A stretch of DNA of 64,000 bases, taken from positions 26,600 to 90,599 of the forward strand of contig CAYHIK010000002.1 in NCBI GenBank assembly GCA_964356795.1, in the 5' to 3' direction. Positions 42,228 through 58,552 of the stretch are shown piece after piece. The notes beneath the pieces were generated by a model. The model was not told the origin of the DNA, made no database searches, and worked only from the letters and a program-made list of their open reading frames with translations. Source of the DNA: an uncultured Candidatus Saccharibacteria bacterium. GTDB lineage: Bacteria; Patescibacteriota; Minisyncoccia; 2-02-FULL-40-12; GWA2-44-9. How positions within the stretch are numbered: the first letter of the stretch is position 1; every line of letters starts with the position of its first letter. Both the position numbers and the translations under genes were made by a program.

Positions 42228-42358
42228 CACATAGCAATCGGCGCACAAACTCCAGTAGTACGCCCATTACTTGTACTAATCATCTAACGCAATTACTCAT
42301 CAACGCGATGTACGCCTCAGGCGAAATCGGGTACGCATGAGTCATCAGTTTGGCAGGA

Positions 42359-44452
42359 ATGACACCGAAAGACACCGTAGAAGAACATTCAGGTTTTGGT
42401 CCCGGTCTTGAACCGGCACCAACGCCACAAGCTCCGACAGCAACACTCGCGACGGCCCCACAGAAAAAGGAGCCGCTTCCTCAGCGCGCGTACCATGCAG
42501 GCGGATCCGACACCCCACACCGAGGTCGCAATCGACGTCCTATGCGCTACCATGGGCACCAAGTATCTCGCGGGGCACCTACAGCGCCCGCAGGAGCTTC
42601 TACCACAGCCGAGTCCACAAAACCCGCCGAGACTACCGAAGAAGCATCGGGAATGAAGAAGCGCTCCGGTCGCCGCGACCGCCGCATGAGCATGCCTCGT
42701 AAGAAGCTTCCCAGCCAGCGACAACTCCAGCCAACCCAGCTCCACGCTGGCCGCATGGGCGCGCCAAAAGAGCTCGGCGAAACCGCAGGCGACGACACGC
42801 TAAAAGTTGCCGCACTCGGAGGATTGGGCGAAATCGGAAAGAACTGCTACATGCTCGAGTACAAGGATGACATTCTCATCATCGATGCAGGCATCAAGTT
42901 CCCCGACGAGACGATGCCCGGCATCGACTTTATCATCCCCAACACTGGCTACCTCGATGGAAAACTTGACCGCATTCGCGGACTCATCCTCACGCACGGA
43001 CACATGGACCACGTAGGTGCGGTTCCCTATCTCCAGCAGAAACTCGGCAACCCAGATATCTACACCGCAGAGCTCACCAAGAATCTCGTGCTCAAGCGCC
43101 ACAGCGAGTTCCCGCAACTCCCCAAGCTTCCGATTCACGTCGTCAAAGACGGCGACCGCGTCAAAATGGGCGACTTCTTCACCGTGGAATTCTTCCACAT
43201 GAACCACAACATCCCCGATGACTTGGGGACGTTCATTGAGACGCCCGTTGGAAACTTTATTCACACCGCAGACTTCAAATTCGACGCAACGCCTATCAAC
43301 GATAAGCCCGTAGACCTCTTGAAGCTCAAAGCGTTTGGCGATAAAGGCGTACTCGCGTTGATGGTTGACTCCACCGACGCAGAGCGACCCGGACACTCGG
43401 TCTCTGAGCAAACCATCTATGAGAATATGGATATCATATTCAAGGATGCGACCGGCATGCTCATCATCGGAACGTTTAGCTCGATGATTAACCGCATGCA
43501 GCAAATCGTTCAGCTCTCTGAGAAATACGGGCGCAAAGTCATCTTCGATGGCTACTCACTCAAGAGCAATGTTGAGATTGCCAAAGAGATGGGCTACATC
43601 AAAATGCAAAAGGGCACACAAATCTCGATGGAACAACTTCGCGACTACCCCCGCGAACGCGTTACCGTGGTCGCCACCGGCGCCATGGGACAAGAAGGCG
43701 CGTCCCTCATGCGCATCGTCAACGCCGAACATCGCCACATTCAAATCCAGCAGAAAGATACAGTTATCTTCTCGAGCTCAGTCATTCCTGGCAACGAACG
43801 CTCCGTGCAGTACTTGAAAGACATGCTCTACCGCGCGGGTGTGAAGGTGTTCCACTATCAAATGATGGACATTCATGCAGGAGGTCACGCTCGACAAGAG
43901 GACCTCAAAGAAATCATGCTTCTGACACGTCCAAAATTCCTCATCCCGCACCATGGGCAATACAGTATGATGGTGTCCAATGGCGAACTCGGTAAACAAG
44001 TCGGCATTGAGGAGGGAAATATCATCATCGCCGACAATGGCCAGATTATCCACCTCACCCCCGACACGTGGTGGTTCGACAAGAAAGTCGCACCGTCAAA
44101 TCTCATCATGGTTGATGGTCTCGGTATCGGCGATATCGGAAACGTCGTCCTTCGCGATCGCCAAGCGCTTGCTGAAGACGGCATGTTCACCATCGTCATC
44201 ATCGTTGATCCAAAGTCTGGTCGGATGCGCACAAGTCCCGATATTATCTCTCGCGGATTCATCTATCTGAAGGAGCAAAAAGATCTCCTCATGCAGGTAC
44301 GCAAGCGCGTTCGCGCGATTGTGGAGGGCGAGAAAGCGCGCCCACTCAACTTGGCATACCTCAAAGACGAAGTGCGCGACCAAATCGGTCAATTCCTCTT
44401 CCAAAAGACGGAACGCCGCCCGATGGTGCTTCCCGTTATCATCGAGGTGTAG
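42359..44452 (+). CDS. rnj: Ribonuclease J (beta-CASP metallo-beta-lactamase) with ~140-aa basic low-complexity N-terminal extension
   Basis: Core from LKVAALGGLGEIGKNCYMLEY with HGHMDHVG motif and beta-CASP/C-terminal domains; N-terminal Pro/Ala/Arg/Lys-rich tail. Confidence 0.9.
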   Translation: MTPKDTVEEHSGFGPGLEPAPTPQAPTATLATAPQKKEPLPQRAYHAGGSDTPHRGRNRRPMRYHGHQVSRGAPTAPAGASTTAESTKPAETTEEASGMKKRSGRRDRRMSMPRKKLPSQRQLQPTQLHAGRMGAPKELGETAGDDTLKVAALGGLGEIGKNCYMLEYKDDILIIDAGIKFPDETMPGIDFIIPNTGYLDGKLDRIRGLILTHGHMDHVGAVPYLQQKLGNPDIYTAELTKNLVLKRHSEFPQLPKLPIHVVKDGDRVKMGDFFTVEFFHMNHNIPDDLGTFIETPVGNFIHTADFKFDATPINDKPVDLLKLKAFGDKGVLALMVDSTDAERPGHSVSEQTIYENMDIIFKDATGMLIIGTFSSMINRMQQIVQLSEKYGRKVIFDGYSLKSNVEIAKEMGYIKMQKGTQISMEQLRDYPRERVTVVATGAMGQEGASLMRIVNAEHRHIQIQQKDTVIFSSSVIPGNERSVQYLKDMLYRAGVKVFHYQMMDIHAGGHARQEDLKEIMLLTRPKFLIPHHGQYSMMVSNGELGKQVGIEEGNIIIADNGQIIHLTPDTWWFDKKVAPSNLIMVDGLGIGDIGNVVLRDRQALAEDGMFTIVIIVDPKSGRMRTSPDIISRGFIYLKEQKDLLMQVRKRVRAIVEGEKARPLNLAYLKDEVRDQIGQFLFQKTERRPMVLPVIIEV

Positions 44453-44476: not shown

Positions 44477-44588
44477 ACCGAAGTGGAGATACCCTTGTTC
44501 GGGTACGACGTCGCCCCCTTACTGGGGGCGCGTCTCGTTCTCGCGCCGTCGCGCTCCGAAAGCCCCTTACAAAGGTACCTCCACTTCG
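44477..44588 (+). ncRNA. Conserved structured element copy A, 3' of rnj: 15-bp outer stem, ~83-nt core with internal hairpin GCCCCC-ttact-GGGGGC
   Basis: Core 44492..44574 is ~97% identical to the reverse complement of 52500..52581, except the hairpin stem carries compensatory substitutions; flanks are self-complementary. Confidence 0.45.
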
Positions 44589-44628
44589 GCTTTGGCCGTA
44601 TCTTTGACAGAATAGCTTTATCGTTGTA

Positions 44629-44634
44629 TTATAA
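44629..44634 (+). promoter_or_regulatory. -10 box TATAAT (in TTGTATTATAAT) upstream of ORF 44649
   Basis: The same 14-mer TTGTATTATAATAT occurs at the promoter of the 60441..61526 operon (minus strand, ~61530-61545). Confidence 0.45.
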
Positions 44635-44648
44635 TATCAGGAGGTAGT

Positions 44649-44975
44649 ATGGCCCATCACAAGCACTCTGGCCCTGACCTCGAGCGTGCTGGCATCTTGA
44701 GGTTTTCATGCGACGCCTGTTGCATCCTCTTCCCGATGCGGTGCGCAACACACAAGGATCTCGAGATAAGAGAACGTCCCGCCGTCCTGGCGCGACGAGC
44801 AATCCGTACAGAGCGAGTGCTCCGCCCGCTTCCTGTGGGTCCAGCGCCAGACATCCCCGAGTCGTTCAGCACACCGCTACTCCGATGCCCCGCCCCCTAT
44901 GAAGTCGTTGTACTGGAAATCAGAGCGTGGCTGAAGGAAATCGAAACCATGGAGCGCAGCGAAGCTCGCGACTAA
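44649..44975 (+). CDS. 108-aa Arg/Cys/Pro-rich ORF between rnj and trpS; coding status uncertain (could be a leader or RNA region)
   Basis: TATAAT box, strong RBS GGGAGGT (3-nt spacing) and a downstream terminator, but the composition looks non-protein-like. Confidence 0.3.
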   Translation: MAHHKHSGPDLERAGILRFSCDACCILFPMRCATHKDLEIRERPAVLARRAIRTERVLRPLPVGPAPDIPESFSTPLLRCPAPYEVVVLEIRAWLKEIETMERSEARD

Positions 44976-44982
44976 CGCACCG

Positions 44983-45017
44983 AAGCCCGACGTTCATACG
45001 CCGGGCTTTCTTTTTTG
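44983..45017 (+). terminator. Rho-independent terminator/attenuator-like hairpin 36 nt upstream of trpS
   Basis: AAGCCCG-...-CGGGCTT followed by TCTTTTTTG. Confidence 0.65.
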
Positions 45018-45052
45018 CCTTCGCGGCCTGCTTGTACTATGATGCTCCTACT

Positions 45053-46057
45053 ATGGCAAAGATATTTTCGGGCATGCGCCCTTCGGGAAAGCTCCATCTC
45101 GGCAACTATTTAGGTGCCATCAAGAACTGGATTGAGCTCCAGAACGACCCCGCCACAACCCAGTGCATATTCTCGGCAGTCGACCTTCACGGCATCACCA
45201 CGCCGTATGATCCTGCGACCTACCAGCAGAATGTGAAAGACGTGCTTCTCGACTACCTCGCCGCAGGTGTTGACCCTGCCAAGTCTCTCATTGTTCGCCA
45301 ATCACGTATCCCCCAACACGCAGAATTGATGTGGCTCTTCTCCACCATCTCTCCCGTGAGCTGGCTCGAACGACTCCCCAACTGGAGAGAAAAAGTATCC
45401 CAAGTCGATGCGATGGGTGATCGCGGCGCGAGTTATCAGAACAACCTCTCCCTGCTCTCGTATCCCGTCCTCATGGCCGCCGACATCTTGCTCTACAAAT
45501 CAGATCTCGTACCCGTAGGCGAAGATCAACTCCCCCACGTTGAACTCACCAATGAAATCGGCGCAAAGTTCAATCACCTCTTTGGGGGCACATTCCCAAA
45601 TGTAAAAGGCCACATCGCAACGGGTGCCCGAATTATGTCGCTCCAAGACCCTCTGAAGAAGATGAGCAAGACGGGCGATGACGGCATCGCGCTTTCCGAT
45701 GACGCCGATACTATTCGTGGCAAGATTAAACGCGCCGTCACTGATTCAGAATCAGAAGTTCGATTTGATGAAAACGCAAAACCCGCAATTTCAAATCTCC
45801 TCACCATCTACGCCACGCTCTCGGGTAAACCGATCCCCACCATTGAGCAAGAATATACTGGCAAAAATTACGGCCAATTCAAAACGGACCTCGCGGAAGT
45901 CGTTGTAAACTTCCTCACGCCATTCCAACAGCGTCGCACGGAGCTCGTTGCTGATGCGGGTGCTTTTGAGCGTCTCTTGACGGAGTCAGAAGAAAAAGCC
46001 AGAATCTTGGCCAGTTCTCACCTAGAAGAAATCCAAGCCCACATGGGCATCCGGTAG
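45053..46057 (+). CDS. trpS: Tryptophanyl-tRNA synthetase
   Basis: Class I motifs: HIGH-like (KLHLGNYLGAI) and KMSKS variant (KKMSKT); start at MAKIFSGMRPSG (ATG 45053). The ORF-table start 44927 is upstream of the terminator. Confidence 0.9.
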   Translation: MAKIFSGMRPSGKLHLGNYLGAIKNWIELQNDPATTQCIFSAVDLHGITTPYDPATYQQNVKDVLLDYLAAGVDPAKSLIVRQSRIPQHAELMWLFSTISPVSWLERLPNWREKVSQVDAMGDRGASYQNNLSLLSYPVLMAADILLYKSDLVPVGEDQLPHVELTNEIGAKFNHLFGGTFPNVKGHIATGARIMSLQDPLKKMSKTGDDGIALSDDADTIRGKIKRAVTDSESEVRFDENAKPAISNLLTIYATLSGKPIPTIEQEYTGKNYGQFKTDLAEVVVNFLTPFQQRRTELVADAGAFERLLTESEEKARILASSHLEEIQAHMGIR

Positions 46058-46065
46058 GAGGAGTT

Positions 46066-46275
46066 ATGATTTGGGTTCGACTCGAGGGCGGAGACTGCTC
46101 GACGCAGCTCCGCCAAGCACTGTTGAGTGAAATCGAGCACCGTTCGGCCCTTCAGGGTAAACAGCTCGATTCGCTCCGCATTCTATCGGTTGCCATCGAG
46201 TACGAGGCGCGCAACAGCGGCGAATCTCCGGTATTCATCCAGAAGCCGCTCCGTTCGCTTGATGGCGGCTGTTAG
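46066..46275 (+). CDS. 69-aa hypothetical protein
   Basis: RBS AGGAGG; its TAG stop lies within the RBS of the next gene. Confidence 0.45.
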   Translation: MIWVRLEGGDCSTQLRQALLSEIEHRSALQGKQLDSLRILSVAIEYEARNSGESPVFIQKPLRSLDGGC

Positions 46276-46282
46276 GAGCATC

Positions 46283-46636
46283 ATGGCCTGCGACACAAGG
46301 TACGAAGCATTCGACGCACTCGCTCGGCGTAAGTTCAGAGACATGCTCCGTGCATGGCTCCGACAGGCGCCACGGCGTGTCGAAGGAATGGTTGGTGATG
46401 GACATCGCATCTACATCCGCTGGCACGCGTGCGAAGAGCGTGAGCGTACCACCGGAGTTGCAGTGCTCAAAACTCGAAGCGATCACGACGACGTGAGCAA
46501 ACCACTCAAGCGACTCAATAACCTGAAGAATCGCATCATCCACGCCGATGGGTGTAACGGATACTTCTTATTCGCATTCTATCGACGCCCGACCGCCAGT
46601 CGCCGTCACGTTGAGCTCCCCATCGAACTCCTCTGA
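46283..46636 (+). CDS. 117-aa hypothetical basic protein
   Basis: ATG at 46283 with RBS AGGAG; the longer ORF from 46127 overlaps the upstream gene in another frame. Confidence 0.45.
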   Translation: MACDTRYEAFDALARRKFRDMLRAWLRQAPRRVEGMVGDGHRIYIRWHACEERERTTGVAVLKTRSDHDDVSKPLKRLNNLKNRIIHADGCNGYFLFAFYRRPTASRRHVELPIELL

Positions 46637-46745
46637 CTCGATATCACCACGACCTCTGCGACCACCCGGTCAATGAGGTCTTTTCTTTCGGTCGAACTTT
46701 GTATAAGACGAAGTTCGACCGGCCTCAGGCGCAGTCCTTTAGGAC

Positions 46746-47960
46746 TTAGCGCCGTAGGGTTACCATAACTTCAGAAATTTTTAAATCAAGTAATTGCTTC
46801 GATATCGCCTCTACTATAACTCTCACCACAGGCTCTGTGTTTGAGGGTCGTATATTGAGCCACCAATCGGGATACTCGATAGAGAGGCCGTCAATCTGAC
46901 TCTGTACCCCGTCGTGATACTTCATGCGCACCATCTCCATCATTGCTCGAGCGTGCTTATGGTCGCGCATGGGAGTTGAAATCTCATCACTCCGCACGTA
47001 TTCGCGATACGGCGCCACCAGCTGAGATAACGCGTGCCCGCTTTTGCGCATGAGCATGTACACGCGAAGGAGTGTGAGTTCGGGGCACTCCATCATCCCA
47101 AATTCGCGCCAATAATAATGGCCACTCAACTCGCCTCCGAACACAGCACCGCGCTCACGCATAGCGGAAGTAATATATCTCCGCCCAACGCGTGAAACCG
47201 CGTACGCCATGCCACGCGCATCAAGCCGGCTCCGTACCGTTTTCGAAAATCGCACATCAAATACCAGCGGGTGGAGCTGAAGCTGTTCAGCGAGAAGTAA
47301 GAAGATAAAATCTGCAGGAATCTGTACGCCGTGCTCAAAAAAATCGATACGGTCCCCATCGGAATCACAGCGCACAGCAAAGTCCGTATCTGGTGCAATG
47401 GGGCCAAGCCGCTCAAGCACTCGTCGCACCGTATCGGGTGCGTCGAGTGACAGCATGAGCTCACTTCCGCCTCGCCAGTGCGCGGCATACGCAACCGCAT
47501 CTGCATATCCTCGCAGGATATCCATCCTCGAAATCGATCCCGTCATCCGATGCGTGCCCTGATGAGAATCGAACATCTGGCGCACCACATCCCCTCCAAT
47601 CACTTCGAGCATATCCCCGTGACGGGCGATAGTTTTGAATCCATTATCTGCAAGGGAGTTGTGAGATGCGGTCACCATCACTCCGGCAGCCGCCCCCTGC
47701 GAGCGAATCGCCCAATAGCATTGCGGGCTCGACACAACTCCAATATCAATAACCTGCGCCCCTGCGTGCATCGCACCATCAATCACTGCGTGAGCAATCT
47801 CTCCGCTCGAGTCGCGCATATCGCGACCGACAACAAGCGGCCCCTGCGCGTGATGCGCCGCAAATCGCATACCAAATCGCTGGGCCATTTCCGCATCAAA
47901 ATCTACGCCATAGCGTCCCCGCACATCATACGCCCGAAATATTTCTGGATTACAAAGCAT
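46746..47960 (-). CDS. Phosphohexomutase (phosphomannomutase/phosphoglucomutase family, ManB/GlmM-like)
   Basis: EIFRAYDVRG N-terminal motif and active-site GVMVTASHNS..NGFK; start ATG 47960. Confidence 0.8.
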   Translation of the reverse strand: MLCNPEIFRAYDVRGRYGVDFDAEMAQRFGMRFAAHHAQGPLVVGRDMRDSSGEIAHAVIDGAMHAGAQVIDIGVVSSPQCYWAIRSQGAAAGVMVTASHNSLADNGFKTIARHGDMLEVIGGDVVRQMFDSHQGTHRMTGSISRMDILRGYADAVAYAAHWRGGSELMLSLDAPDTVRRVLERLGPIAPDTDFAVRCDSDGDRIDFFEHGVQIPADFIFLLLAEQLQLHPLVFDVRFSKTVRSRLDARGMAYAVSRVGRRYITSAMRERGAVFGGELSGHYYWREFGMMECPELTLLRVYMLMRKSGHALSQLVAPYREYVRSDEISTPMRDHKHARAMMEMVRMKYHDGVQSQIDGLSIEYPDWWLNIRPSNTEPVVRVIVEAISKQLLDLKISEVMVTLRR

Positions 47961-47983
47961 ACACTCAACGTATAACCACACCA

Positions 47984-48026
47984 TCAGTATACCAAAAACA
48001 AAAAGGTGCCCCGTGCGCTTTCGCAC
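47984..48026 (-). terminator. Rho-independent terminator of the 48100..48678 gene
   Basis: GGTGCCCCGTGCG...CGCACACGGGGCACC hairpin followed by UUUUUGUUUUUGG on the minus strand. Confidence 0.75.
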
Positions 48027-48099
48027 ACGGGGCACCGAACGGGGCCAAAGGACTAAGGTTCAGAGGTCAAACGGGACCAAAGGAACCGAGGTCAAGGAC

Positions 48100-48678
48100 C
48101 TAACTTGCGCGCACCAGAGCCGGGTTGTTGGAGTTGAAGTCGTTGCCCAACCAGCCGCCGTACCAGCCCCACGCACTGCCGTCCCGGTACAGGCACCGAA
48201 CGTACAGGTCGCCGTCGGAGTGGCGGTAGATGGTGCCCCAGAAAAACACGTACTTGCCCTTCCAGTCCTCAGGGATGAGGTGCTGGTTTTCGGGCTTCAG
48301 CAGGTAGTCCAGGACGTTGGCGGTGAAAACGGGCTTGGACTTGAGCTCACGGCGGAGGTCGTTGCCCACGATACGCTTGTCGCCCATCTGCCCCTTCGAG
48401 AGGTAGAGGGAAGCCTTGGTGGGATCCCAGATGACCACGCCGTCCTTGCGGTGCTCCTCCACTCGCCAGCCGTTGGGCAGGAAGGGGTCGGCATCGCAGT
48501 CGATGGCGTGGGCGACCTGCTTGATCTCGGAGAGACCCCGCAGGTACGCGAGGATCTCGCGAGCCTTGTCCTCGCTGTGGGCGAGAGCTGCGAAGTCCTT
48601 GGGTTCCCATCCCGCCTTCGTAGTGGTGATGGCGAGTTCGTGGGCCAGGCCCACGCTGACATCAGACGGAGTAGCCAT
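48100..48678 (-). CDS. 192-aa Trp/Gly-rich hypothetical protein; high GC (~62%)
   Basis: RBS CAGGAGA upstream of ATG 48678; own terminator; GC well above flanks. Confidence 0.5.
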   Translation of the reverse strand: MATPSDVSVGLAHELAITTTKAGWEPKDFAALAHSEDKAREILAYLRGLSEIKQVAHAIDCDADPFLPNGWRVEEHRKDGVVIWDPTKASLYLSKGQMGDKRIVGNDLRRELKSKPVFTANVLDYLLKPENQHLIPEDWKGKYVFFWGTIYRHSDGDLYVRCLYRDGSAWGWYGGWLGNDFNSNNPALVRAS

Positions 48679-48827
48679 AGCTACGCATCTCCTGTTTGGT
48701 GACACATCCCTTGCGGGACACATCGGTTGGACAGCTTTTCAACGTACTCTTAAATTATAGCACATATAAAACAAAAAGGCAAGACTAAAAACTGGCTTAT
48801 TTTATATGTTTTTGTTAGCATACCTCC

Positions 48828-49913
48828 ATGTCACTCTCCATCGGCATCGTAGGACTTCCGAACGTCGGCAAGTCGACGCTCTTCAAAGCCGTCACCAACA
48901 AACAAATAGATATCCAAAACTACCCCTTCACCACTATTGAGCCAAACGTGGGGATTGTTGAGGTTCCCGATGAGCGCGTTGACGCGCTTTCCGAGCTCTC
49001 CAAGTCAGCGAAGAAGCTCTACGCCACTATTGAATTCACCGACATCGCCGGACTCGTGAAGGGTGCGAGCCAAGGGGAAGGTTTGGGAAATAAATTCCTT
49101 GCCAACATCCGCGAAGTCGATGCTATCGCGCAAGTGGTTCGCGCGTTTGAATCGGGCGATATTATTCACGTGCACGAACACGTAGACCCCGTGCGCGATA
49201 TCGGCATCATCAACGCCGAGCTCATCATTGCCGACCTCGACACCGTCTCCAAGCGTCTCGCCACTACCGAAGCGAAAGCAAGAAACGACAAAGTCGCCCG
49301 CGATCAAATCCCCCATCTGCAGAAGATTGCCGAGGCACTTCAACGCGGCTCGCTCTTGAGTCAGATAGAACTTTCCAGCGATGAGCAGGCGCTCGCCAAA
49401 GAATTGAGCCTTCTCACTGCCAAGAAATTTATTTACGTCATCAACGTTTCTGATACTCAACTTGCCGAAGACTGGAAACCATCCGCCGAATTACTCACCG
49501 CCATGAATGGCTCCGAATATGTGGCGATGTGCAACAAGCTCGAGCTCGAACTTTCCGAAGTATCTCATGATGAAAAAGCGAAGTTTCTCTCCGAGCTTGG
49601 ACTTCCCGAGAGTGGCCTTGATCGGCTCATCCGAGAGGCGTATCACACGCTCGGGCTCGTATCATTCCTCACCACGGGACCCGATGAAACGCGCGCATGG
49701 ACTGCACATATCGGCGATCTCATCCCCAAAGCATCGCGCGCAATTCACACTGATTTTGAGCGACTCTTCATTCGCGCTGAAGTCATCAATTGGAAAGATC
49801 TCCTCGAGTGCGGTGGCTACGGCGTCGCGCGATCCAAAGGACTCCTCCACACCGTTGGTAAAGATTATGTCATCCGCGACGGTGATGTCGTCGAAATTCT
49901 GATTGGGAAATAG
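48828..49913 (+). CDS. ychF: Ribosome-binding ATPase YchF (Obg-family GTPase, OLA1-like)
   Basis: [24 protein letters not shown]1 motif and C-terminal TGS domain; 361 aa. Confidence 0.9.
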
Positions 49914-49962
49914 ACAAAATTAAAACGGGGACCGAAGTCCCCGTTGCGGCCGAGATGGCCGC
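49914..49962 (-). terminator. Rho-independent terminator of the 49975..50187 gene (ACGGGGAC-uucg-GUCCCCGU + UUUUAAUUUUG), plus a second small hairpin
   Basis: Read on the minus strand directly 3' of the TAG at 49975-49977. Confidence 0.75.
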
Positions 49963-49974
49963 GGTACTGCACTG

Positions 49975-50187
49975 CTACTTGGCGGTGGGCTTGGGCAGGT
50001 AGCGCTGGCCCTTGACCCCGGCGCCCCGCGTGCCGGTGACGCGCTTGCCGTTGCTGGCGAGCACCGGGTGCCCGCCCTTGTACACCACCGGCTCGCCGGC
50101 GGCGACCGAGAGCTTCTTGGTCATGCGCTTGCGCGCGGCCATCACGCGACGGCCCTCGGCGGTCATCGGACGGGTCGTGCTCTTCAT
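49975..50187 (-). CDS. 70-aa basic small protein with KGG-type motif (stress-induced KGG-repeat-like)
   Basis: RBS AAGAGG upstream of ATG 50187; sequence MKSTTRPMTAEGRRVMAARKRMTKKLSVAAGEPVVYKGGHPVLASNGKRVTGTRGAGVKGQRYLPKPTAK. The ORF-table start 50379 overlaps the rpsF promoter. Confidence 0.5.
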   Translation of the reverse strand: MKSTTRPMTAEGRRVMAARKRMTKKLSVAAGEPVVYKGGHPVLASNGKRVTGTRGAGVKGQRYLPKPTAK

Positions 50188-50280
50188 TTCTTCTGCCTCT
50201 TTCTGGCCCCTAGGGCCTGAAACGAACTGTCTTAAGTTAATATTAGCATATATGGGAATAAATGTCAATAGGGTCAATAG

Positions 50281-50309
50281 TTGACTTTTTCCCGCATCAT
50301 TGCTATATT
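50281..50309 (+). promoter_or_regulatory. Sigma70-like promoter of the rpsF-ssb-rpsR operon (-35 TTGACT, 17 bp, -10 TATATT)
   Basis: Consensus-like elements ~70 nt upstream of rpsF. Confidence 0.6.
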
Positions 50310-50377
50310 TTACGGGTATAAACCATGCCCCATTGGGGCAATATCCTTGTTTCCGAAAGGAATCGGGATGAATCCAC

Positions 50378-50836
50378 ATGGCAGAATCTAGAAACTACGA
50401 GTTCGCCTACCACGTGACCGCTGAATTAGACGAGGCCCGCATACCTCAAATTCAGCAGGAAGTGGAGGCACTCATTCAGAAGAGCGGAGGTATTATCACC
50501 TTCGCACAACAGCCGGAACGCCGGAAGTTGTCGTATGAAATTAAGCACCAGCGACAGAGCTTTTTCGCGTGGGTACAGTTCACCACCGAGAACACTGAGC
50601 TCATCGCGGAGCTCGATGAGTGGGCACGCTTGCACCCCGAGGTGCTTCGCCACATCGTCTTGAAGCTCGAGCCAGAGTCAGATAAGCGTGCAGCGAAGCA
50701 GGCTGAGCATTTGGAGCGCAAAGCTGCAAAGGCCGCCAAAGAAGGCGCCGCAGTGAAGAAAGTTGCTACGGAAAAGAAAGCAGAAGATACCGGCAAGCTC
50801 GAACAGCAGATTGAGGACGTGATTGGAAACCTCTAA
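50378..50836 (+). CDS. rpsF: 30S ribosomal protein S6 (with acidic/Lys C-terminal tail)
   Basis: MAESRNYEFAYHV...; conserved rpsF-ssb-rpsR order. Confidence 0.85.
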   Translation: MAESRNYEFAYHVTAELDEARIPQIQQEVEALIQKSGGIITFAQQPERRKLSYEIKHQRQSFFAWVQFTTENTELIAELDEWARLHPEVLRHIVLKLEPESDKRAAKQAEHLERKAAKAAKEGAAVKKVATEKKAEDTGKLEQQIEDVIGNL

Positions 50837-50847
50837 TCCACCCACCC

Positions 50848-51360
50848 ATGAATCTCAATAAAGTACTTCTCATCGGTCGGCTCACTCAAGATCCCGAAGT
50901 ACGCACCACCCCAAGCGGGCAATCCGTCACCACGGTGAAGCTTGCGACGAATCGCGTATGGAATGATCAGGCCACAAAGCAGAAGCGTGAAGCGACCGAG
51001 TTTCACACGATTATCTGCTGGGGACGACTCGCAGAAATCTGTGGTCAGTACCTCAAGAAGGGTTCGCTCGCAATGTTCGAAGGACGCCTACAGACTCGCT
51101 CATGGGACGACAAAACCAGCGGGCAGAAGCGCTATACCACAGAAATCGTTGCCGAGAACATGCAAATCGGACCTCGCCCCGCAGGAGCCCCCTATCAAGG
51201 CGGTGCGCCCGTGGCAGACATCCGACGCGCGGCACCAAGTCGCCCAGCGCCATCGGCAAATGCTGAGCCCGACATCCCTGTCATTAATGAGGACGAGCTC
51301 ACCATGGCAGGCATCGAAGAAGAGCCAAAGCCAATTAAAGATACTGACTTACCTTTCTAG
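50848..51360 (+). CDS. ssb: Single-stranded DNA-binding protein
   Basis: OB-fold N-terminus MNLNKVLLIGRLTQDPEVRTTPSGQSVTTVKLATNR and acidic C-terminal tip ...DTDLPF. Confidence 0.9.
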   Translation: MNLNKVLLIGRLTQDPEVRTTPSGQSVTTVKLATNRVWNDQATKQKREATEFHTIICWGRLAEICGQYLKKGSLAMFEGRLQTRSWDDKTSGQKRYTTEIVAENMQIGPRPAGAPYQGGAPVADIRRAAPSRPAPSANAEPDIPVINEDELTMAGIEEEPKPIKDTDLPF

Positions 51361-51437
51361 GCCCTAGGCAACTAGGCGTTAGGCACTAGCTCAGAAAGCT
51401 AACGCCTAAAGCCTAAAATCCTAACGCCTTCCCTAAC

Positions 51438-51653
51438 ATGAAACGAACAATTCTTCACGGAGACAATCTTGCAAAAGTCGACTACAAAGACGTCGCACTT
51501 CTTCGCAAGTTTGTGACCTCCGAATTCAAGATTAAGAATGCAAAGCGCACTCGCTTGTCCGACAAGGACCAGCGCCGCGTTGCAAACGCAATCAAGATTG
51601 CACGCTTTATGGCACTCATGCCGTACACGCGCAATCAGACAGTAAAGTCCTAA
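51438..51653 (+). CDS. rpsR: 30S ribosomal protein S18
   Basis: DYKDVALLRKFVTSEFKI...RLSDKDQRRVANAIKIARFMALMPY. Confidence 0.9.
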   Translation: MKRTILHGDNLAKVDYKDVALLRKFVTSEFKIKNAKRTRLSDKDQRRVANAIKIARFMALMPYTRNQTVKS

Positions 51654-51699
51654 TGAGTCATGAGCGGGTCTGCGCCTCTGGCTTGACCCCTTCCTGTGT

Positions 51700-51728
51700 C
51701 ACTCACGACGTCCCGCCTTTGGCGGGAC
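51700..51728 (+). terminator. Probable terminator of rpsR (GTCCCGCC-ttt-GGCGGGAC + T-rich)
   Basis: 8-bp GC stem; weak U-tract. Confidence 0.4.
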
Positions 51729-51947
51729 TGTTCGTTCCTACCTCCCCAGCCCTCCTCATGCACGGCCTCTGGCCTCTCGCTCAAGATAATCGCTCGGACC
51801 TCGTCGGGGTTGCGGATTCTATTTTTCTCGAATCTGACGACAAGCATCAGCGGTATGCGCGTAATGTTCAGTTGCTGTACCAAAGCCGAGCGAACAGCGA
51901 TGGCGACGTTACGCACCCTGAACGAGCGCGCATACTGCTGATGTTGC

Positions 51948-51980
51948 ATTAAAGAAAAACGCTCCCATACGGGGGCGTTT
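51948..51980 (-). terminator. Rho-independent terminator of the 51994..52200 gene
   Basis: AAACGCCCCC-guau-GGGAGCGUUU followed by UUCUUUAAU on the minus strand. Confidence 0.7.
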
Positions 51981-51993
51981 GCGTTGCGATGCA

Positions 51994-52200
51994 TCAGAAG
52001 TCGCTTCCACCTTCATTCGTGGTGTGGGAGCCCATTTTGAGCTTTGCACCGCATCCAGGGCAGGTGAACGGGAGGCGGTCGATGCTCTGTGGGGAAATCA
52101 GACGCAAACAGACGCTGCAGTAGTAGAATCCGTAATGCCCCTGATCACACGTTCGAGACTCGATCGTACCACTCGTTTCAGGAGTAATTTCGTATGGCAT
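51994..52200 (-). CDS. 68-aa Cys4 zinc-ribbon protein
   Basis: C..C...YYCSVC...CPGC; RBS GAGGAGGG upstream of ATG 52200; own terminator. Confidence 0.55.
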   Translation of the reverse strand: MPYEITPETSGTIESRTCDQGHYGFYYCSVCLRLISPQSIDRLPFTCPGCGAKLKMGSHTTNEGGSDF

Positions 52201-52492
52201 ACGCCCTCCTCAAAGAACAGCCCCACGAGCGTATCAGTGCCATCAGATAACAACAAGACCCCCACATGGGAGGTCTTTACATCAGAATGGAATCGCGGAT
52301 GGGAATGAATGGTAAAAAAGAGCGAAGAACCGGGAATGAGCTGTACTCCCTAACGTCAGAGCTCGAAGCTGGGCCGCTTCTTAATCAGCCTCTCGATAGA
52401 CGCTTGCGCCCATCGGCCTCATGGCTCAACCCGGCATGAGTATAATAGCACATCAAATTTATACGTCAAGTATATCTGCGCACAAAGAGAAT

Positions 52493-52588
52493 CGATGTGC
52501 CTTGTAAGGGGCTTTCGGAGCGCGACGGCGCGAGAACGAGACGGCTCGGCAGTAAGCCGAGAACGTCGTACCCGAACAAGGCATGTCG
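52493..52588 (-). ncRNA. Conserved structured element copy B, 3' of recA (same orientation relative to its gene as copy A); internal hairpin CTCGGC-ttact-GCCGAG
   Basis: Reverse complement of 52500..52581 aligns to 44492..44574; hairpin stem differs by six compensatory substitutions; own 9-bp outer stem with two G-U pairs; U-rich tract follows on the minus strand. Confidence 0.45.
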
Positions 52589-52621
52589 AGTCTATTTGGG
52601 AGTAGCCCTAGTTACCGCTTC

Positions 52622-53689
52622 CTAGCGCTTGAAGACCTTGGGACCCATTTCGCCCTTCAACGGCTCCGCATCTACCACCGCTGATGCAGTATAAATCTTG
52701 ACGCTGATTTCTTTCTCAATCTTGGGATTCTCCTTGAGGAAGTTGCGGGCGCCCTCCATACCCTGCCCCAACTTCTCGCCATTGTAGGAGTACCAGCTTC
52801 CCTGCTTTTCGACGACACCAAACTGAATGCCAGCGTTGATGATATCGGCATGGCCAGAGATTCCTTCGTTGTAGAGAATATCAAACTCGCAGGTGCGGAA
52901 TGGCGCGGCAACCTTGTTCTTTACGATCTTCACCTTCACGCGATTGCCCACGATTTTCTCGCCTGACTGAATCTGTGCCGCACGGCGAATCTCGACGCGA
53001 ACCGATGAATAAAACTTAAGTGCCAATCCACCCGTGGTCGTCTCGGGATTCCCGAACATGACGCCAATCTTCTGGCGGATTTGGTTAATGAAAAGGACGG
53101 TTGTATTTGTCTTCGACACCACACCTGTGAGCTTGCGCAACGCATGCGACATGAGTCGTGCCTGAAGTCCGACGTGCTGCTGGTCCATTTCGCCTTCAAT
53201 TTCTGCCCGTGGCGTAAGCGCAGCAACGGAGTCGATGACCACCAGCGAGATGCCGCCAGACTTCACGAGTGTCTCCACAATCTCGAGCGCCTGTTCGCCG
53301 TTATCTGGCTGTGAGATGAGAAGATCCTGAACCTTCACGCCAATCTTTTTTGCGTATTCGGGATCGAGCGCGTGTTCAGCATCCACGTATGCAGCGATAC
53401 CGCCAATCTTTTGCACCTCTGATACAAGATGGAGCGCGAGGGTCGTTTTACCAGATGATTCAGGTCCATACACCTCCACGACGCGTCCGCGAGGCATACC
53501 GCCAACACCAAGTGCGATATCAAGCGAGATAGAGCCAGTTGGAATCACATCAACATCTACCTTCCTGGCGTCGCCGAGTTTCATGATACTTCCTTCGCCG
53601 TATTTCTCCTGAATCTCGCGCACCGCAAGTGATACGTGCTTGTTCTCCGATACATCCGCTGATACTTTTTTGTCGTCTTTCTTTGCCAT
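52622..53689 (-). CDS. recA: Recombinase RecA
   Basis: Walker [14 protein letters not shown]1/L2 loops, 355 aa. Confidence 0.95.
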
Positions 53690-53801: not shown

Positions 53802-54623
53802 TCACTTGAGATTTCTGAATTCGGACTTGATCTGCGCCGAGAACTCCAGCAACCTCGGGTTCAGGTGCAGGTCCGGTTGCCACGCCAATCCCTCGACAAT
53901 CAAGTCATACTCACGCACGACCGTCGCGCCTGGAATGCGTTTACCCTCTCCGTCTTTCTCCAGGCCGAGCAACCAGATAGTGTCGGCGATGGTACAAGCC
54001 GCCGTCACATCGTGAGTGACGACAATGATGGTACTGAGCTCGTCGGCCGACGCTACCTCAGTGATGAGCTTCGTGACGTTCTCCAGCATGATGACATCCA
54101 GCCCGGAGAACGGCTCATCCATCAGGAGGAAGTGCTCACTGCACAATAGTTGCTGCGCAATCGCCAACCGCTGACGCTGACCCCCCGACAACTGACTCGG
54201 GTAGAGATCGCGACGTTCGGTGAGACCGAACCGCTCGAGCATCTCATCCGCTTTCATGCGGATGTCCTTGCCTTTCAGGCCCCGCTGTCGTGTCGCGAAG
54301 TACAGGTTGCCTCGCACCGTCAGGAACTTCAGGAGCGGGTAGTGCTGGGCCACAACACCCACGAGTCCGTCCGGCGACCGGTCGCCATGCTCGTTGATAG
54401 TCACCGTACCTTCAGTTGGACGTCGCAGACCCGCGAGGATCTTGAAGAGCTGCGTCTTCCCGATACCCGAAGGCCCAAGGAGCGCAACGACCTGGCCCTG
54501 GGTGAATCCAGGACGGACGATGTTATCAATCCGAAGGTTGATATTGCGCAAGATACGCGAACCACCCAGAACGAGGCCAACGCCCTCGGCTTTCAGAAGT
54601 GTCTCTTGTCGAGTGTAGTTCAT
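53802..54623 (-). CDS. ABC transporter ATP-binding protein (NitT/TauT nitrate/sulfonate/taurine-type)
   Basis: Walker A GPSGIGKT, LSGGQRQR signature, Walker B LLMDEPFSGLD. Confidence 0.85.
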   Translation of the reverse strand: MNYTRQETLLKAEGVGLVLGGSRILRNINLRIDNIVRPGFTQGQVVALLGPSGIGKTQLFKILAGLRRPTEGTVTINEHGDRSPDGLVGVVAQHYPLLKFLTVRGNLYFATRQRGLKGKDIRMKADEMLERFGLTERRDLYPSQLSGGQRQRLAIAQQLLCSEHFLLMDEPFSGLDVIMLENVTKLITEVASADELSTIIVVTHDVTAACTIADTIWLLGLEKDGEGKRIPGATVVREYDLIVEGLAWQPDLHLNPRLLEFSAQIKSEFRNLK

Positions 54624-54627
54624 GGCC

Positions 54628-55419
54628 TCACCCCTTCACCGTGGCAAGCGCCGCATATGGACACGCGCGGTTCTTGAGCCAGCCAATGACGGCATCCATG
54701 CCCAGCCCGAGCAGAAGGATGCACAGCTGTACGGCGAACACCGCATCCAGGTTGAAGTGCTTGTTCTGGTTGAGCAGCAGCGCACCGACGCCGCCCTCAC
54801 CCCTGCTGAGTCCCTCGACCATGGTCAGCATATTCCAGCCGATGGCGAAGTTCTGCCGAAGCGCCTCGATAGCGTCATCAAGCGTACCGCGTACGACGAC
54901 GTTCCAGACGAGCTGGGTGCGCGACATGCGAAGCGTACGTGCGTAGTCCAGGTCGTCGGTCGGAATGGATACCACAATGGCGGCCATCGAAGTCGTGTAG
55001 AACACGGTCATCCCAAACACCAAGAGCGCTACCTTGAACTGGTGCCCGCCCTTGAGGTATAGCGTGAATAGGAACGTGAGCCCCACAAGTCCAAGAAAGC
55101 GGCCCTTGGAGATGAGCGTAACGATTGGCCTGAACATCGGAATCACCGAAAGATATGCCATCGCCAGCGACAACAACACAGTCAACGCAATTGCGTGTAG
55201 GTTGAGTATGAAGCTCGTGACGAGCTCGCGACCCAGGCCCTCTTCCATCCACATCCGACCCAGTGCAGAAAGCACCTCGGGTGGCGTGGGGATGACATCC
55301 GATGGCATACACCACCACAACATCATGGCCAGAAAGGCCTGACTTGCGGCAGTGAGCGCCATCACCGATGGCGAGACAACACCGAACGGCAACATTAATT
55401 GCCGCAGCGCCTTGCCCAT
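54628..55419 (-). CDS. ABC transporter permease (NitT/TauT family)
   Basis: 6 TM; RBS AAGGAGGA upstream of ATG 55419 (the ORF-table N-terminal 20 aa extension is unlikely). Confidence 0.8.
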   Translation of the reverse strand: MGKALRQLMLPFGVVSPSVMALTAASQAFLAMMLWWCMPSDVIPTPPEVLSALGRMWMEEGLGRELVTSFILNLHAIALTVLLSLAMAYLSVIPMFRPIVTLISKGRFLGLVGLTFLFTLYLKGGHQFKVALLVFGMTVFYTTSMAAIVVSIPTDDLDYARTLRMSRTQLVWNVVVRGTLDDAIEALRQNFAIGWNMLTMVEGLSRGEGGVGALLLNQNKHFNLDAVFAVQLCILLLGLGMDAVIGWLKNRACPYAALATVKG

Positions 55420-55492
55420 ACGTCCTCCTTCGATAATTATTAAACAGCTACCGCTTGCTCTCCGCTGAGCATCCCACACCTGTGAGCCGCTC

Positions 55493-55527
55493 AGAGAAAA
55501 GGCCCACCCCCCAACAGGAGGTGGGCC
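55493..55527 (-). terminator. Rho-independent terminator of the 604-aa gene (GGCCCACC-...-GGTGGGCC + UUUUCUCU)
   Basis: Perfect 8-bp stem on the minus strand between the high-GC island and the ABC operon. Confidence 0.8.
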
Positions 55528-55549
55528 AAACTATCGTCGATGTCAGAAC

Positions 55550-57364
55550 CTAGATGGTGCCCAGCACGATCTCGACGCGGCGGTTGCGGGCGCGTCCTGC
55601 GTCCGTCCCGTTGGACGCGATCGGGTTGGTCTGCCCGTGAGCATAGACCTCGATGCGTCCGGACGGGAAGAGGGTGGAGCTCTTCGCCTCCAGCCACTCC
55701 TTGACCGCGAAGGCCCGGGCTTCGGACAAGGTCTGGTTCGCATCGGCGTTCCCGACGTTGTCGGTGTGGCCGTGCACGATGACCTTGTAGTTGCCCTGGG
55801 TGATCTGCTGGTACAGCTCGTCGAGCGCCGATTGCGCCGCCGGGGTGAAGGACGCCTTGCCCGTCTCGAAGGTAATCGAGTAGGAGGCGCGCTTGCCTAC
55901 GACGTCACGAATCTGCGCGTTCGCGAACTGGTTTTCAGTGCGAAGCGTCACGGGACCCGCGAGACGAGAGACCTCGGCCACGTAGCTCGTGTCGATGGCC
56001 TCTTCGGCAGGCGGATACGTGGGCACATCGCCCGGGTAGTACTTCTTCACGTAGTTACCGAACAGCGTGTAGGTGGCGGCTGCCTTGTTGCCCTGGTAGG
56101 GCGGAAGACCGAACAACTCCAGCATGTCCGGCAGGTTGTTGACGTACGAACCGCCCAGCTCCACGGGGATGCCAAGCTTGTCGCTCTCGGTCACGCCCTT
56201 GTAGTAGCGCTCCCAGTACGCGGCATCCGAACCGTTCTCAGCGAAGACGACCTCGGCGACACGCGCGGCCTGTGAGAGCGCCTGCGGATACGCCTTGATC
56301 TGATCGCCGGCCTCGGCGATTGCACGGAACATATTGACGAAGGTTGCCCGGTTATCCTGGGCAAACTTGTCAATGACGATGATGGCGTTGGGCATCTGCG
56401 ACGCGTTCTCACGCGTCGACAGAATGTTGACCAGACCGCCACGCTGCTGCGCGACGTTCACGTCGCCGGGGGTCCAGGTGACCACGCCGTTGACGCACAC
56501 GTTCTTCGTTTCACCCGTGGGCTCATTCTTCAGACCCTTGACGACCTTTCGGTCTTCGCAGGCGCCGCCGATGTAGGACTGCGCGGCTTCGATGTATCCC
56601 GGGGTACTAACCCAGTTGATGGCGTCGGCGTTCCAGGTTGTCATGTCAGGGTTGATGGGGATGTCGTTCAGGGCAGCCCAGTAGACCGCGATGTTCCAGT
56701 CCCCGTCCTTGATGACGCCCGCTACGAGTGCGCCACGCGCCCTCTGCGGATCCTTCTTCCAGGCAGGTGGACCCATGAACTTGTCCTCTCCGCGCGAGTA
56801 GCCCGCTGAGCCGATCCACTTGGCCTGGTACTCGGGGCCCAACTTCTTGAGCTTGGGATTCACGCCCGCGAGGAACGAGGCGGCGCCATCACCCATGATG
56901 GCAACGCAGGGCGCGCCACCGGGGTTCGGGTCACCATCCTTGTAGCCCTTCGCAAACGCAAGGAGAGCGGCCTGCATCTTGTCGGGCCAATCCTGACGCT
57001 CGAACCGCAGATTGACGCCGTACTTGGCGTTCAACGATCCCTGCGTCGGAGTGGCGCCACCGTTGGCCAACAGCCAGCCGAGCTGACTGTTCCAGGCCCA
57101 GTGCAGACAGGTGAACTGCGGCCCCGACACCGAGGCCGAGCCCGCGGAGGGCAGCGACAGCGGAGCGGACGGGGTAGCCGTCGTGTTTGTCGTGGTGACG
57201 TCAGGCAGCGAGCCCTTTTCGGGAACCGCCGAACCGGACGCCTTCTTGGACGGCACGAGCTTGTCCAACAAGCCCGAGTCGTACGCCTTGTAGATGCCGA
57301 ACGAGACGAGGCTCACCACGCCAAACGTGATGATAGCCTTGCCCAGAGGCTTGATCTGCGCCAT
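55550..57364 (-). CDS. Membrane-anchored periplasmic protein: N-terminal TM, Ser/Thr/Pro linker, ~400-aa SBP-like (NMT1/SsuA-type?) domain, C-terminal OmpA/MotB peptidoglycan-binding domain; high GC
   Basis: C-terminus YKVIVHGHTDNVGNADANQTLSEARAFAVKEWL...RRVEIV is OmpA_C. N-terminal helix AIITFGVVSLVSFGIY. The middle-domain call is by eye. Confidence 0.8.
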   Translation of the reverse strand: MAQIKPLGKAIITFGVVSLVSFGIYKAYDSGLLDKLVPSKKASGSAVPEKGSLPDVTTTNTTATPSAPLSLPSAGSASVSGPQFTCLHWAWNSQLGWLLANGGATPTQGSLNAKYGVNLRFERQDWPDKMQAALLAFAKGYKDGDPNPGGAPCVAIMGDGAASFLAGVNPKLKKLGPEYQAKWIGSAGYSRGEDKFMGPPAWKKDPQRARGALVAGVIKDGDWNIAVYWAALNDIPINPDMTTWNADAINWVSTPGYIEAAQSYIGGACEDRKVVKGLKNEPTGETKNVCVNGVVTWTPGDVNVAQQRGGLVNILSTRENASQMPNAIIVIDKFAQDNRATFVNMFRAIAEAGDQIKAYPQALSQAARVAEVVFAENGSDAAYWERYYKGVTESDKLGIPVELGGSYVNNLPDMLELFGLPPYQGNKAAATYTLFGNYVKKYYPGDVPTYPPAEEAIDTSYVAEVSRLAGPVTLRTENQFANAQIRDVVGKRASYSITFETGKASFTPAAQSALDELYQQITQGNYKVIVHGHTDNVGNADANQTLSEARAFAVKEWLEAKSSTLFPSGRIEVYAHGQTNPIASNGTDAGRARNRRVEIVLGTI

Positions 57365-57420
57365 GACTTTCTATCTCCTTCTGAACGATACGAGTCAATT
57401 CCGATGCGGCAGAACGCCGC

Positions 57421-57463
57421 GTAAAAAGATACAGTTTCAGCCGGACGGGATTGCCCGGCTGAA
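57421..57463 (-). terminator. Rho-independent terminator of the 57475..58524 gene (UUUCAGCCGG-loop-CCGGCUGAAA + U-tract)
   Basis: Perfect 10-bp stem on the minus strand. Confidence 0.8.
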
Positions 57464-57474
57464 ACCGCGCCTCA

Positions 57475-58524
57475 CTATTGCGTCTGCCGCAACGGACGGG
57501 TCGGCACTCGGGCCGGCTCGTCATCGGGAAATGCCAACGACAACGAAAGCGGCTGTTCGGGGTCGGCCGCCGTGGATAGCAAGTGCTGCTTCTCGCCCTC
57601 CGGGAGGAGGAGAGAATCAGCACGCTTCTCCCAGGCTTCCAACTTCGCCAGCGCCTCGTCTTCGAACATGCCGTTCTCAAGGTCGAGCTGTGAAGTGAAC
57701 TCGTCGCTGATGCGGAGGAAATCTTCGACCTCCCCCATCTTCTCGCTGAAGTCCTGCTTGATGTACTCCGCGGCCTGCTCCTTGAGCTCCCAGGCGTCGC
57801 CGCCCTTGCCGATGATGGCGCGGGAGTTCTTGAGCACGACCTCGGTCGTCTTGGCGGCCTTGAACTGGACTTCCAGCTCTTGGACCTCGTCGACCGTGTC
57901 GTCGATGACGACGGAGGCAACGTCCCGCATCTTACTGAGCGTGCGGTAGAGGATCTCCAACTTGGCGAGCATATGCTCGTAGCTTATGGTGCTCTTCCCA
58001 CGCCGCCCGGCCATGCGACCGAGCTTCGCGAGCGCGAGCTTGTCGTTCTGCTTGCGCGCCTGCGCCGCCAACTTCATCGCCCGGTCGAACTCGACCTTCT
58101 TGGTGTGAATCAACTCGGTCAGATATGAGATCTGACCCTTGAGCTTTCCCAGCTGAGCATCGACGCTCTCCAACTCCTTTCGTTTCTCCGAGATGAAGTT
58201 CTTGAGGATGCCGATGGGGTCGATGGTAATCAACATGCCGGTGAAGGAACGCATGCCTGCCTTGAACCAAGCGGACATGATGAACCTGAACCGCTTGTTG
58301 GCGATGACCGACCAGAATGCGTACAGGCCGACAGCCAGCACACTACAGCCGATGGCCGCACCCAGAGCCGAGAACAGCCCCGAGAGCAGCGTCAATAGGA
58401 ATGGCAGAGCCGCATAGGCCCCGACCGCACCCAAAACGGTGGCGATTGAGAGGAAGACCATGCCGGTCGTCCCCTCGGTTCGCTCCCAGAAGGATTTTGC
58501 CTTAACGACGTCGATCTCGTTCAC
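57475..58524 (-). CDS. Membrane protein with 2-3 N-terminal TM helices and a ~250-aa cytoplasmic coiled-coil domain; high GC
   Basis: GTG start at 58524 with strong RBS AAAGGAG (5-nt spacing), 28 nt after the stop of the upstream gene. The longer ORF-table start at 58596 overlaps that gene. Confidence 0.7.
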   Translation of the reverse strand: MNEIDVVKAKSFWERTEGTTGMVFLSIATVLGAVGAYAALPFLLTLLSGLFSALGAAIGCSVLAVGLYAFWSVIANKRFRFIMSAWFKAGMRSFTGMLITIDPIGILKNFISEKRKELESVDAQLGKLKGQISYLTELIHTKKVEFDRAMKLAAQARKQNDKLALAKLGRMAGRRGKSTISYEHMLAKLEILYRTLSKMRDVASVVIDDTVDEVQELEVQFKAAKTTEVVLKNSRAIIGKGGDAWELKEQAAEYIKQDFSEKMGEVEDFLRISDEFTSQLDLENGMFEDEALAKLEAWEKRADSLLLPEGEKQHLLSTAADPEQPLSLSLAFPDDEPARVPTRPLRQTQ

Positions 58525-58552
58525 AGATTCTCCTTTCGATTCGGTGGGGGCA

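Follow-up and report, generated by a model that had tools for sequence, protein, structure and literature searches.

An 82-nt branched element in the loops of gene-end hairpins in a narrow clade of Paceibacterota

Two copies of a structured element behind rnj and recA

The 64-kb stretch of Patescibacteria DNA analysed here (the window) carries two copies of a structured element with a core of about 82 nt, one just downstream of the RNase J gene rnj and the other just downstream of recA. RNase J and RecA both assign the window to Patescibacteria (the candidate phyla radiation, CPR), among Paceibacterota and Yanofskybacteria-like metagenome-assembled genomes (MAGs). The rnj gene, assigned from its translation and from homologues with RNase J Pfam domains (P0252 is 100% identical), lies in an open reading frame (ORF) at 42350..44452 on the plus strand, in which the called protein begins at residue 4. 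Copy A follows at 44478-44589 (+), its outer stem starting 25 nt past the rnj stop (44452). On the minus strand, recA (52622..53689; translation and RecA homologues) is followed by copy B at 52598-52483, with an outer stem that starts 24 nt past the stop (52622). Both copies have the orientation of their upstream genes. At most about 15 nt past each lies a strong sigma-70-type promoter directed away from it: TTGACA-17-TATTAT at 44604..44632 (+), which matches 11/12 positions, stands 15 nt past copy A and leads into the next transcription unit, and a TG-extended TTGACG-16-TATTAT at 52442..52469 (-), 14 nt past copy B.

A first-pass annotation of the window had reported this repeat, at these places and in this orientation, and a repeat finder recovers it as an 80-nt inverted repeat (44493-44572 against 52502-52581) with 88% identity. 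The exact block shared by A and B is 42 nt long, and 100 shuffles gave no match. Every difference within the 80 nt is confined to one internal hairpin, P3b, as the annotation had also seen; this hairpin reads CGCCCCC-TTACT-GGGGGCG in copy A and (T)CTCGGC-TTACT-GCCGAG(C) in copy B, so that the changes are fully compensated and the hairpin is paired in both. One extra A in the 3' P1 strand of copy A (ACAAAGG, against ACAAGG in B) falls just past the 3' end of the repeat. A covariance model (CM), R1, scores the core of copy A (44493..44574, +), delimited by alignment and pair counts, at 114 bits (E 3.5e-24), and the core of copy B (52500..52581, -), which carries the CTCGGC-TTACT-GCCGAG variant, at 108.6 bits (E 6.9e-23).

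Each core is enclosed by an outer stem that differs in sequence between the copies and is self-complementary within each, in agreement with the earlier description. In copy A the 5' arm CCGAAGTGGAGATAC (44478..44492, +) pairs with the 3' arm GTACCTCCACTTCGG (44575..44589, +) with a single A.C mismatch; in copy B self-complementarity and folding place the arms at 52582..52598 (CAAATAGACTCGACATG, 5') and 52483..52499 (CACATCGATTCTCTTTG, 3') on the minus strand. Both copies fold more stably than their shuffles (z = -8.1 for A and -4.1 for B). Two details of that description need correction, and the high expression that it gives to rnj and recA is an assumption. The two G-U pairs assigned to the outer stem of copy B are A.C and C.A mismatches on the recA strand and become G.U only on the opposite strand. 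The U-rich tract said to follow the element is weak, with tails of CTTTGG and CTCTTTG, and a terminator scan called no canonical terminator in either copy.

Six copies of a conserved three-way junction

The annotation had treated the two copies as members of a family and advised a search for more. Four further copies were found (C to F), which makes six copies at four independent loci, all in Paceibacterota DNA. An exact 20-mer, GCGCTCCGAAAGCCCCTTAC, gave no match in the species representatives of GTDB and a single match in metagenomes, copy C on a groundwater contig (L001), which lies 8 nt past the stop of a YceG/MltG gene (mltG), co-directional with it and followed by a promoter. Relatives of RecA led to copy D at the orthologous recA site of L003, a strain whose recA is 99% identical in amino acids and 90% in nucleotides to that of the window strain; the contig terminates within the core, and copy D is therefore truncated. 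A pattern of the junction nucleotides only, scanned through the contigs of species genomes, returned 16 matches, one of them real: copy E in a Paceibacterota MAG (L018), upstream of an S1 gene. The other 15 are chance-like (L016 and L017 were read directly and the remainder scored by CM). Copy F was found at the same site in L043 by following the neighbouring S1 gene.

Two patterns gave no match in viral contigs, and phage and plasmid collections held no meaningful match. The window and about 380 kb of related loci were also searched with models R1 and R2, filters being turned off for R1 in the window; this gave the two window copies and no diverged copy beyond the six. Orthologues of the flanks of L001 were absent from the collected related loci, and literature searches found no description of such an element.

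The six-copy alignment folds into a three-way junction. The long helix, formed by the locus-specific outer stem and P1 (44493-98 in copy A, with the 3' strand from 44569), is followed by a 2x2 internal loop and by P2, three base pairs of GGG/CCC (44501-03/44564-66). The linker UAC leads to P3 (GACG/CGUC; 44507-10/44531-34), which after a bulged U is topped by P3b (44512-30), a helix of 6-7 bp that differs in sequence in every copy and has the loop UUACU or a similar one. After the linker UCG comes P4a (UUC/GAA; 44538-40/44558-60), then an asymmetric internal loop UC/UCC, P4b (GCGC/GCGC with the loop CGUC; 44543-54) and the linker AGC.

Of the 190 cells formed by the 36 pairs, 95.3% hold standard pairs, a fraction that falls to about 40% in slid controls; both partners have changed in 21 of the 36 pairs, and 500 shuffles never equal any of the observed measures. 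These statistics come from six sequences only, and copy F is the sole source of support for P2, P4a and P4b. Compensatory changes are seen in P1 with the outer stem, P2, P3b, P4a and P4b, as is expected of a conserved structured RNA. Those of copy F turn G-C into A-U in P2, UU/AA into AC/GU in P4a and C-G into G-C in P4b. The change in P2 maintains the GGG/CCC register (columns 17-19 with 83-85); an alternative P2 pairing, UUCGG/CCGAA, is not kept by copy F and was dropped. The UC/UCC loop in P4 and the bulged U27 are retained in five of the six copies, and the truncated copy D keeps U27 and the 5' side of the loop. Conservation of the fold in the six copies is genuine. A coding function for the core was discarded, as it has no start codon and the hairpin alters the frame content.

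The first-pass annotation had gone one step further and read the covariation as the mark of a functional RNA. The part of this that concerns the fold stands; compensated palindromes alone are no proof of RNA function, as DNA-level processes can also keep pairing.

That an elaborate intrinsic terminator, akin to the complex terminator which the annotation had listed among its options, arose in place at each gene separately is very improbable. Copies A, B, C and F do come after a stop codon and before the next promoter, and the GC-rich hairpin P3/P3b is followed by UCGUUCUC. Identical 61-nt cores stand, however, behind the unrelated genes rnj, recA and mltG; they must have been copied, which contradicts evolution in place. 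Canonical intrinsic terminators have a GC-rich hairpin with a loop of 3-8 nt and a U tract, and none was called in the element. An efficient stop at P3 would moreover leave P4 and the 3' strands P2' and P1' untranscribed, yet these covary, and copy E is not behind a co-directional gene end.

Comparison of orthologous copies separates constraint on sequence from constraint on pairing. Between B and D none of 53 aligned positions outside P3b has changed, although third codon positions of recA differ by 28% between the two strains; the chance of this at the neutral rate is 0.72^53 = 3e-8. In P3b, four of seven pairs have changed, each with compensation, and the spacer directly after the recA stop is barely alignable. 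Copies E and F share the same arms and 15 of 18 positions of P3b. Their cores are identical at 39 of 54 positions, a divergence that is about neutral (the third-position identity of S1 is 67%), and the core of copy E matches that of copy A, from another lineage, at 49 of 53 positions. Eight of the 15 changes in copy F are compensated pairs in P2, P4a and P4b. Pairing is therefore kept in all copies and sequence in some lineages only. Where several copies of the family occur, conservation of the core far exceeds that of synonymous sites.

Such a record invites the view that the element is a dedicated functional RNA family, with a three-way-junction core that acts in trans or in cis as a protein-binding small RNA, a small ribozyme or a ligand-binding domain. 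Transcription that continues past the upstream gene could supply the transcript, and the outer helix, by serving as a processing stem of the RNase III type, could release or stabilise it. Functional RNAs are usually recognised by conserved junction nucleotides combined with variable peripheral helices, the unchanged B/D core is what such a family would show, and the compensated changes in P2 and P4a fall in helices that are not simple adjacent palindromes. The outer helices, at 21-33 bp, are long enough for double-strand-specific RNases. On the other hand, copy F has drifted about neutrally at its orthologous site in the very junctions that are otherwise conserved, and the element has no similarity to Rfam families, including all classes of self-cleaving ribozyme. 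At gathering thresholds Rfam 15 recognises only three tRNAs in the window, and permissive scans around copies A to F gave chance-level matches of at most 25 bits, far under the cut-offs; the comparison with Rfam that the annotation had recommended thus yielded no matching family. These negatives cover hammerhead, twister, pistol, hatchet and HDV-like ribozymes, riboswitches and known repeat RNAs. Read from the sequence, a tRNA origin, hammerhead-type cores and the CTTG/GTTC target of IS91 likewise fail to fit all copies. The presence and orientation of the element, described below, bear further on this reading.

Host hairpins, patchy presence and orientation

The first-pass annotation had regarded the long outer stem as part of what sets the element apart. 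It is instead an ordinary gene-end hairpin of the lineage, of a kind found elsewhere in the window and in relatives. A census of the window gives about a dozen intergenic hairpins of 10-16 bp, some seven of them within about 50 nt of a gene 3' end and most without a U tract. The local class can be described as a near-perfect stem of 10-21 bp, at most about 50 nt from the stop codon, usually U-less and often placed before the next promoter; the outer stems of A and B fit this description. U-tract terminators coexist with the U-less hairpins, as is seen at 44983-45008, where a canonical hairpin followed by TCTTTTTT stands directly after a 108-aa ORF (44649-44975) and before a tryptophanyl-tRNA synthetase (TrpRS) domain; judged by its position, this hairpin could be an attenuator or terminator upstream of trpS. 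Two very long hairpins, of 16 bp (15541-15576) and 21 bp (15729-15778), share the 19 nt that come next, TGCTCCGGGACCAGGACTC. This tail forms the 3' end of a minus-strand tRNA gene at 15776-15847, and the first site has the tail and no tRNA call.

At orthologous sites of relatives the element is often missing. Behind rnj it is absent from L026, L027, L029, L031 and L032, which are 91-95% identical to the window over the aligned RNase J region. Plain hairpins of 10-15 bp stand there in four of the five. That of L026 has 15 bp, AGAATAAACGGCTCA-CGAG-TGAGCCGTTTATTCT, and lies at the same distances from the rnj stop and from the downstream -35 box as the outer stem of copy A. In L027 (12094-12125) and L032 (2063-2093) the hairpin consists of the last 15 or so coding bases and their exact inverted copy past the stop, and each arm agrees with the synonymous codons of its own genome. 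L029 has a 10-bp hairpin and L031 only a short GC-rich one, GGCCCCG-TTCTG-CGGGGCC. Behind recA the element is absent from L002 and L004 (RecA 92-93% identical), which have simple GC hairpins instead. The promoter CCCTTGCAAAAGCG...TATAAT of the S1 site is retained in L033-L042, which lack the left arm and the core.

The element is therefore polymorphic for presence at the rnj, recA and S1 sites, as is typical of miniature inverted-repeat transposable elements (MITEs). Plain hairpins stand at the equivalent positions in L026, L027, L029 and L032 (rnj) and in L002 and L004 (recA), and the core thus lies in the loop of a kind of hairpin that also occurs without it. In sum, the core of about 82 nt is confined to a narrow Paceibacterota clade, where it sits in the apical loop of long, near-perfect gene-end hairpins. 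Absence from close relatives at every locus tested would be unusual for a needed RNA in a tiny genome, and it speaks against the dedicated RNA family considered above. It also argues, together with the occurrence of both orientations at one site, against the annotation's picture of a fixed 3'-end regulator of rnj and recA, and fits a mobile or recombining repeat better; the link to rnj that had been singled out appears incidental.

The element is in sense with the upstream gene in A, B/D, C and F, and in four of five loci or lineages it lies just past the stop of a co-directional gene (8-25 nt), a regularity that a dedicated RNA family would explain. Copy E departs from it. It lies downstream of a plus-strand gene controlled by a fluoride riboswitch and upstream of S1, is antisense to both of these plus-strand genes and has no evident promoter of its own, which again counts against such an RNA family; on balance we regard that family as rather unlikely. 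The riboswitch itself, at 6204-6265 (+) of L018, scores 46 bits, above the gathering score, and stands upstream of a 67-aa membrane-like ORF. Copies E and F share site, arms and a near-identical P3b, and their cores are inverted with respect to each other relative to S1, an arrangement that could have arisen by inversion between the 28-33-bp arms or by repeated insertion.

Counted on the strand that carries the upstream gene, the outer-stem mismatches comprise six A.C and one G.U, and folding is more stable by 10-16 kcal/mol for the opposite strand. A call in favour of the opposite strand was initially drawn from the 6:1 ratio and the folding energies and was dropped, as the plain hairpins of the window give four A.C against three G.U by the same count.

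These features touch on a further explanation, in which the element is a DNA-level site, a folded single strand or cruciform that a recombinase, an HUH-type enzyme or a replication protein would recognise. The core, lying between inverted repeats, would be a segment open to inversion or exchange, and the RNA would play no part. The inverted cores of E and F within shared arms are what this predicts. G.U pairs fill only one of the 190 cells, and the mismatches are mainly A.C, as expected for DNA palindromes; the plain hairpins likewise have no strand bias. The assembly break within the core in L003 and the wholesale replacement of P3b at an orthologous site, which fits exchange between copies, point the same way. 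The window ORFs scanned, about half of all that were called, include no candidate enzyme gene, however, and the position of most copies just past stop codons suggests that transcription matters. The P4 loop and the bulged U27 have been retained rather than repaired to perfect palindromes, which speaks for selection on a specific fold rather than mechanical maintenance of a palindrome. We give a purely DNA-level site a low probability.

Several other features were noted near the copies and in their relatives. Between copy B and rpsR, about 830 nt (51654-52480, -) follow the element and include the strong promoter at 52469-52442; some 230 nt of this spacer are ORF-less and end in a hairpin with a U tract (52272-52259), and a 68-aa zinc-ribbon-like ORF follows (52200-51994). 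No Rfam match was found in this spacer, and the rpsR-recA spacer of L002 measures just 46 nt. In L004 (1460-1800), recA is followed by a promoter and then by a GC-rich untranslated stretch of about 300 nt, in which local inverted repeats are numerous, ahead of a 158-aa ORF; from its sequence this region could be an unrecognised RNA or leader. L001 has a sub-threshold match to the L10 leader at 740-881. A five-gene block (53802-59242; an ABC ATPase, a permease, an OmpA-domain protein and two unknowns) lies between recA and an ABC2 permease gene and is inserted relative to L003. Between PMM and ychF, three relatives encode a reverse transcriptase (RT; L027 15780-17184, L028 10017-11421, L029 18382-19389), with bAvd, a weak Pfam match, in L027 and L028 and none called in L029; these are parts of diversity-generating retroelements. 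The corresponding position of the window (48100-48723) holds only a 207-aa ORF with no Pfam match. At 3928-5329, within an ORF of 996 aa (2511-5501, -), are five to six tandem units of about 210-237 nt that are 69-86% identical; this ORF, which has no Pfam match, probably encodes a repeat-domain surface protein.

Relation to known elements and proposed origin

REPs (repetitive extragenic palindromic sequences) protect mRNA 3' ends. Together with BIMEs and REPINs they are interspersed intergenic hairpin repeats at gene 3' ends, contained in the upstream mRNA, patchy between strains and evolving as families within a genome (PMC3116915, PMC2817692, PMC3333891). The element resembles them in being interspersed at gene 3' ends, hairpin-forming and patchy between strains. 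A REP, in contrast, is an imperfect palindrome of 20-40 nt with a conserved GTAG head and hundreds of copies, whereas the unit here is a three-way junction of 82 nt, enclosed in a hairpin that is locus-specific and not conserved, and its copy number is apparently low. No RAYT gene, and no HUH (RAYT-type) or transposase domain, was seen among the window ORFs scanned against Pfam.

Mobile DNAs are known to land on extragenic hairpins, as the insertion sequences (IS) IS1397 and ISKpn1 do in REP loops (PMC1525189). The small-RNA-coding module ssr9 is a selfish passenger of a palindrome-targeting transposase (of the IS110-family ISPpu9) and stands alone at some sites (PMC12288879). These IS (of kilobase size) and modules are bounded by defined end boxes and depend on a transposase that has been identified. 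The element differs from them in having no known transposase, end boxes or circular intermediates, and it has no sequence similarity to them.

RNase III cleaves Correia hairpins. The bacterial MITEs Correia/NEMIS, ERIC/IRU, RUP and BOX are non-autonomous intergenic elements of about 100-150 nt that are co-transcribed, form long hairpins and can terminate transcripts or be processed (PMC3184786). MITEs own their terminal inverted repeats and lie between direct duplications of the target, in which they differ from the element: its flanks repeat in inverted rather than direct orientation and change from locus to locus, its ends share TGT...ACA only, and its conserved part is branched. Intrinsic terminators share the position between stop and next promoter, and the outer stem belongs to the local type of gene-end hairpin. 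They differ from the element in that its loop is an 82-nt conserved domain, common in sequence to unrelated genes, and in that it has no U tract. An integron attC site, which requires R''/R' boxes (RYYYAAC...GTTRRRY) on either side of an imperfect palindrome, at the 3' end of gene cassettes beside an integrase, was also rejected: GTTCGGG misfits GTTRRRY, and the neighbours are housekeeping genes, not cassettes. By analogy, the element appears closest in behaviour to REP/REPIN, to MITE-type repeats or to an ssr9-like passenger module, and it lacks the defining features of each.

We tentatively favour, at slightly below an even chance, the reading that the element is a structured interspersed repeat, lodged in the loops of gene-end hairpins and exchanged between them; its propagation is probably mobile or recombining. 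The repeat would spread or exchange between gene-end hairpins through a trans-acting activity or through recombination or gene conversion between copies. The host may tolerate it because the compact folding insert would hold the two arms of the hairpin together, and the host hairpin, putatively transcribed as the 3' end of the upstream mRNA, would still act in 3'-end formation or protection. Constraint on sequence might then reflect the needs of the propagating, exchanging or homogenising activity, and constraint on pairing the requirement that the host hairpin stay closed in the transcript.

Several observations weigh against this proposal. Target-site duplications are lacking, and TGT/ACA is the full extent of terminal inverted repetition. 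A Pfam scan of roughly 33 window ORFs, about half of those called and with the larger ones included, turned up no transposase, recombinase or RT. A clean empty site, with the same outer stem and no core, was not recovered among the relatives, as gene-end hairpins turn over too fast between those available. With six copies found, the family may be low-copy. The perfect conservation of the B/D core fits purifying selection on a sequence-specific function equally well, and the hypervariable P3b is left unaccounted for by a repeat. The core could also be a new class of small functional nucleic-acid fold, either a self-processing or protein-recruiting RNA excised from mRNA 3' ends or the recognition fold of an undescribed mobile element that specifically invades gene-end hairpin loops as folded single-stranded DNA or RNA, P3b having a part in the invasion. 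We think this improbable.

To our knowledge, almost nothing is known of the non-coding elements and transcript ends of CPR bacteria. Their genomes are tiny and hold very few repeats. The element described here is a conserved branched insert that has been copied between genes and lineages, hosted in long gene-end hairpins without U tracts. It provides a handle on 3'-end formation and protection in CPR and may expose a propagation mechanism that targets hairpin loops. A core with an RNA activity of its own would make the element a new class of RNA, and a purely selfish repeat would still serve as a strain-level marker and as an example of selection on pairing alone.

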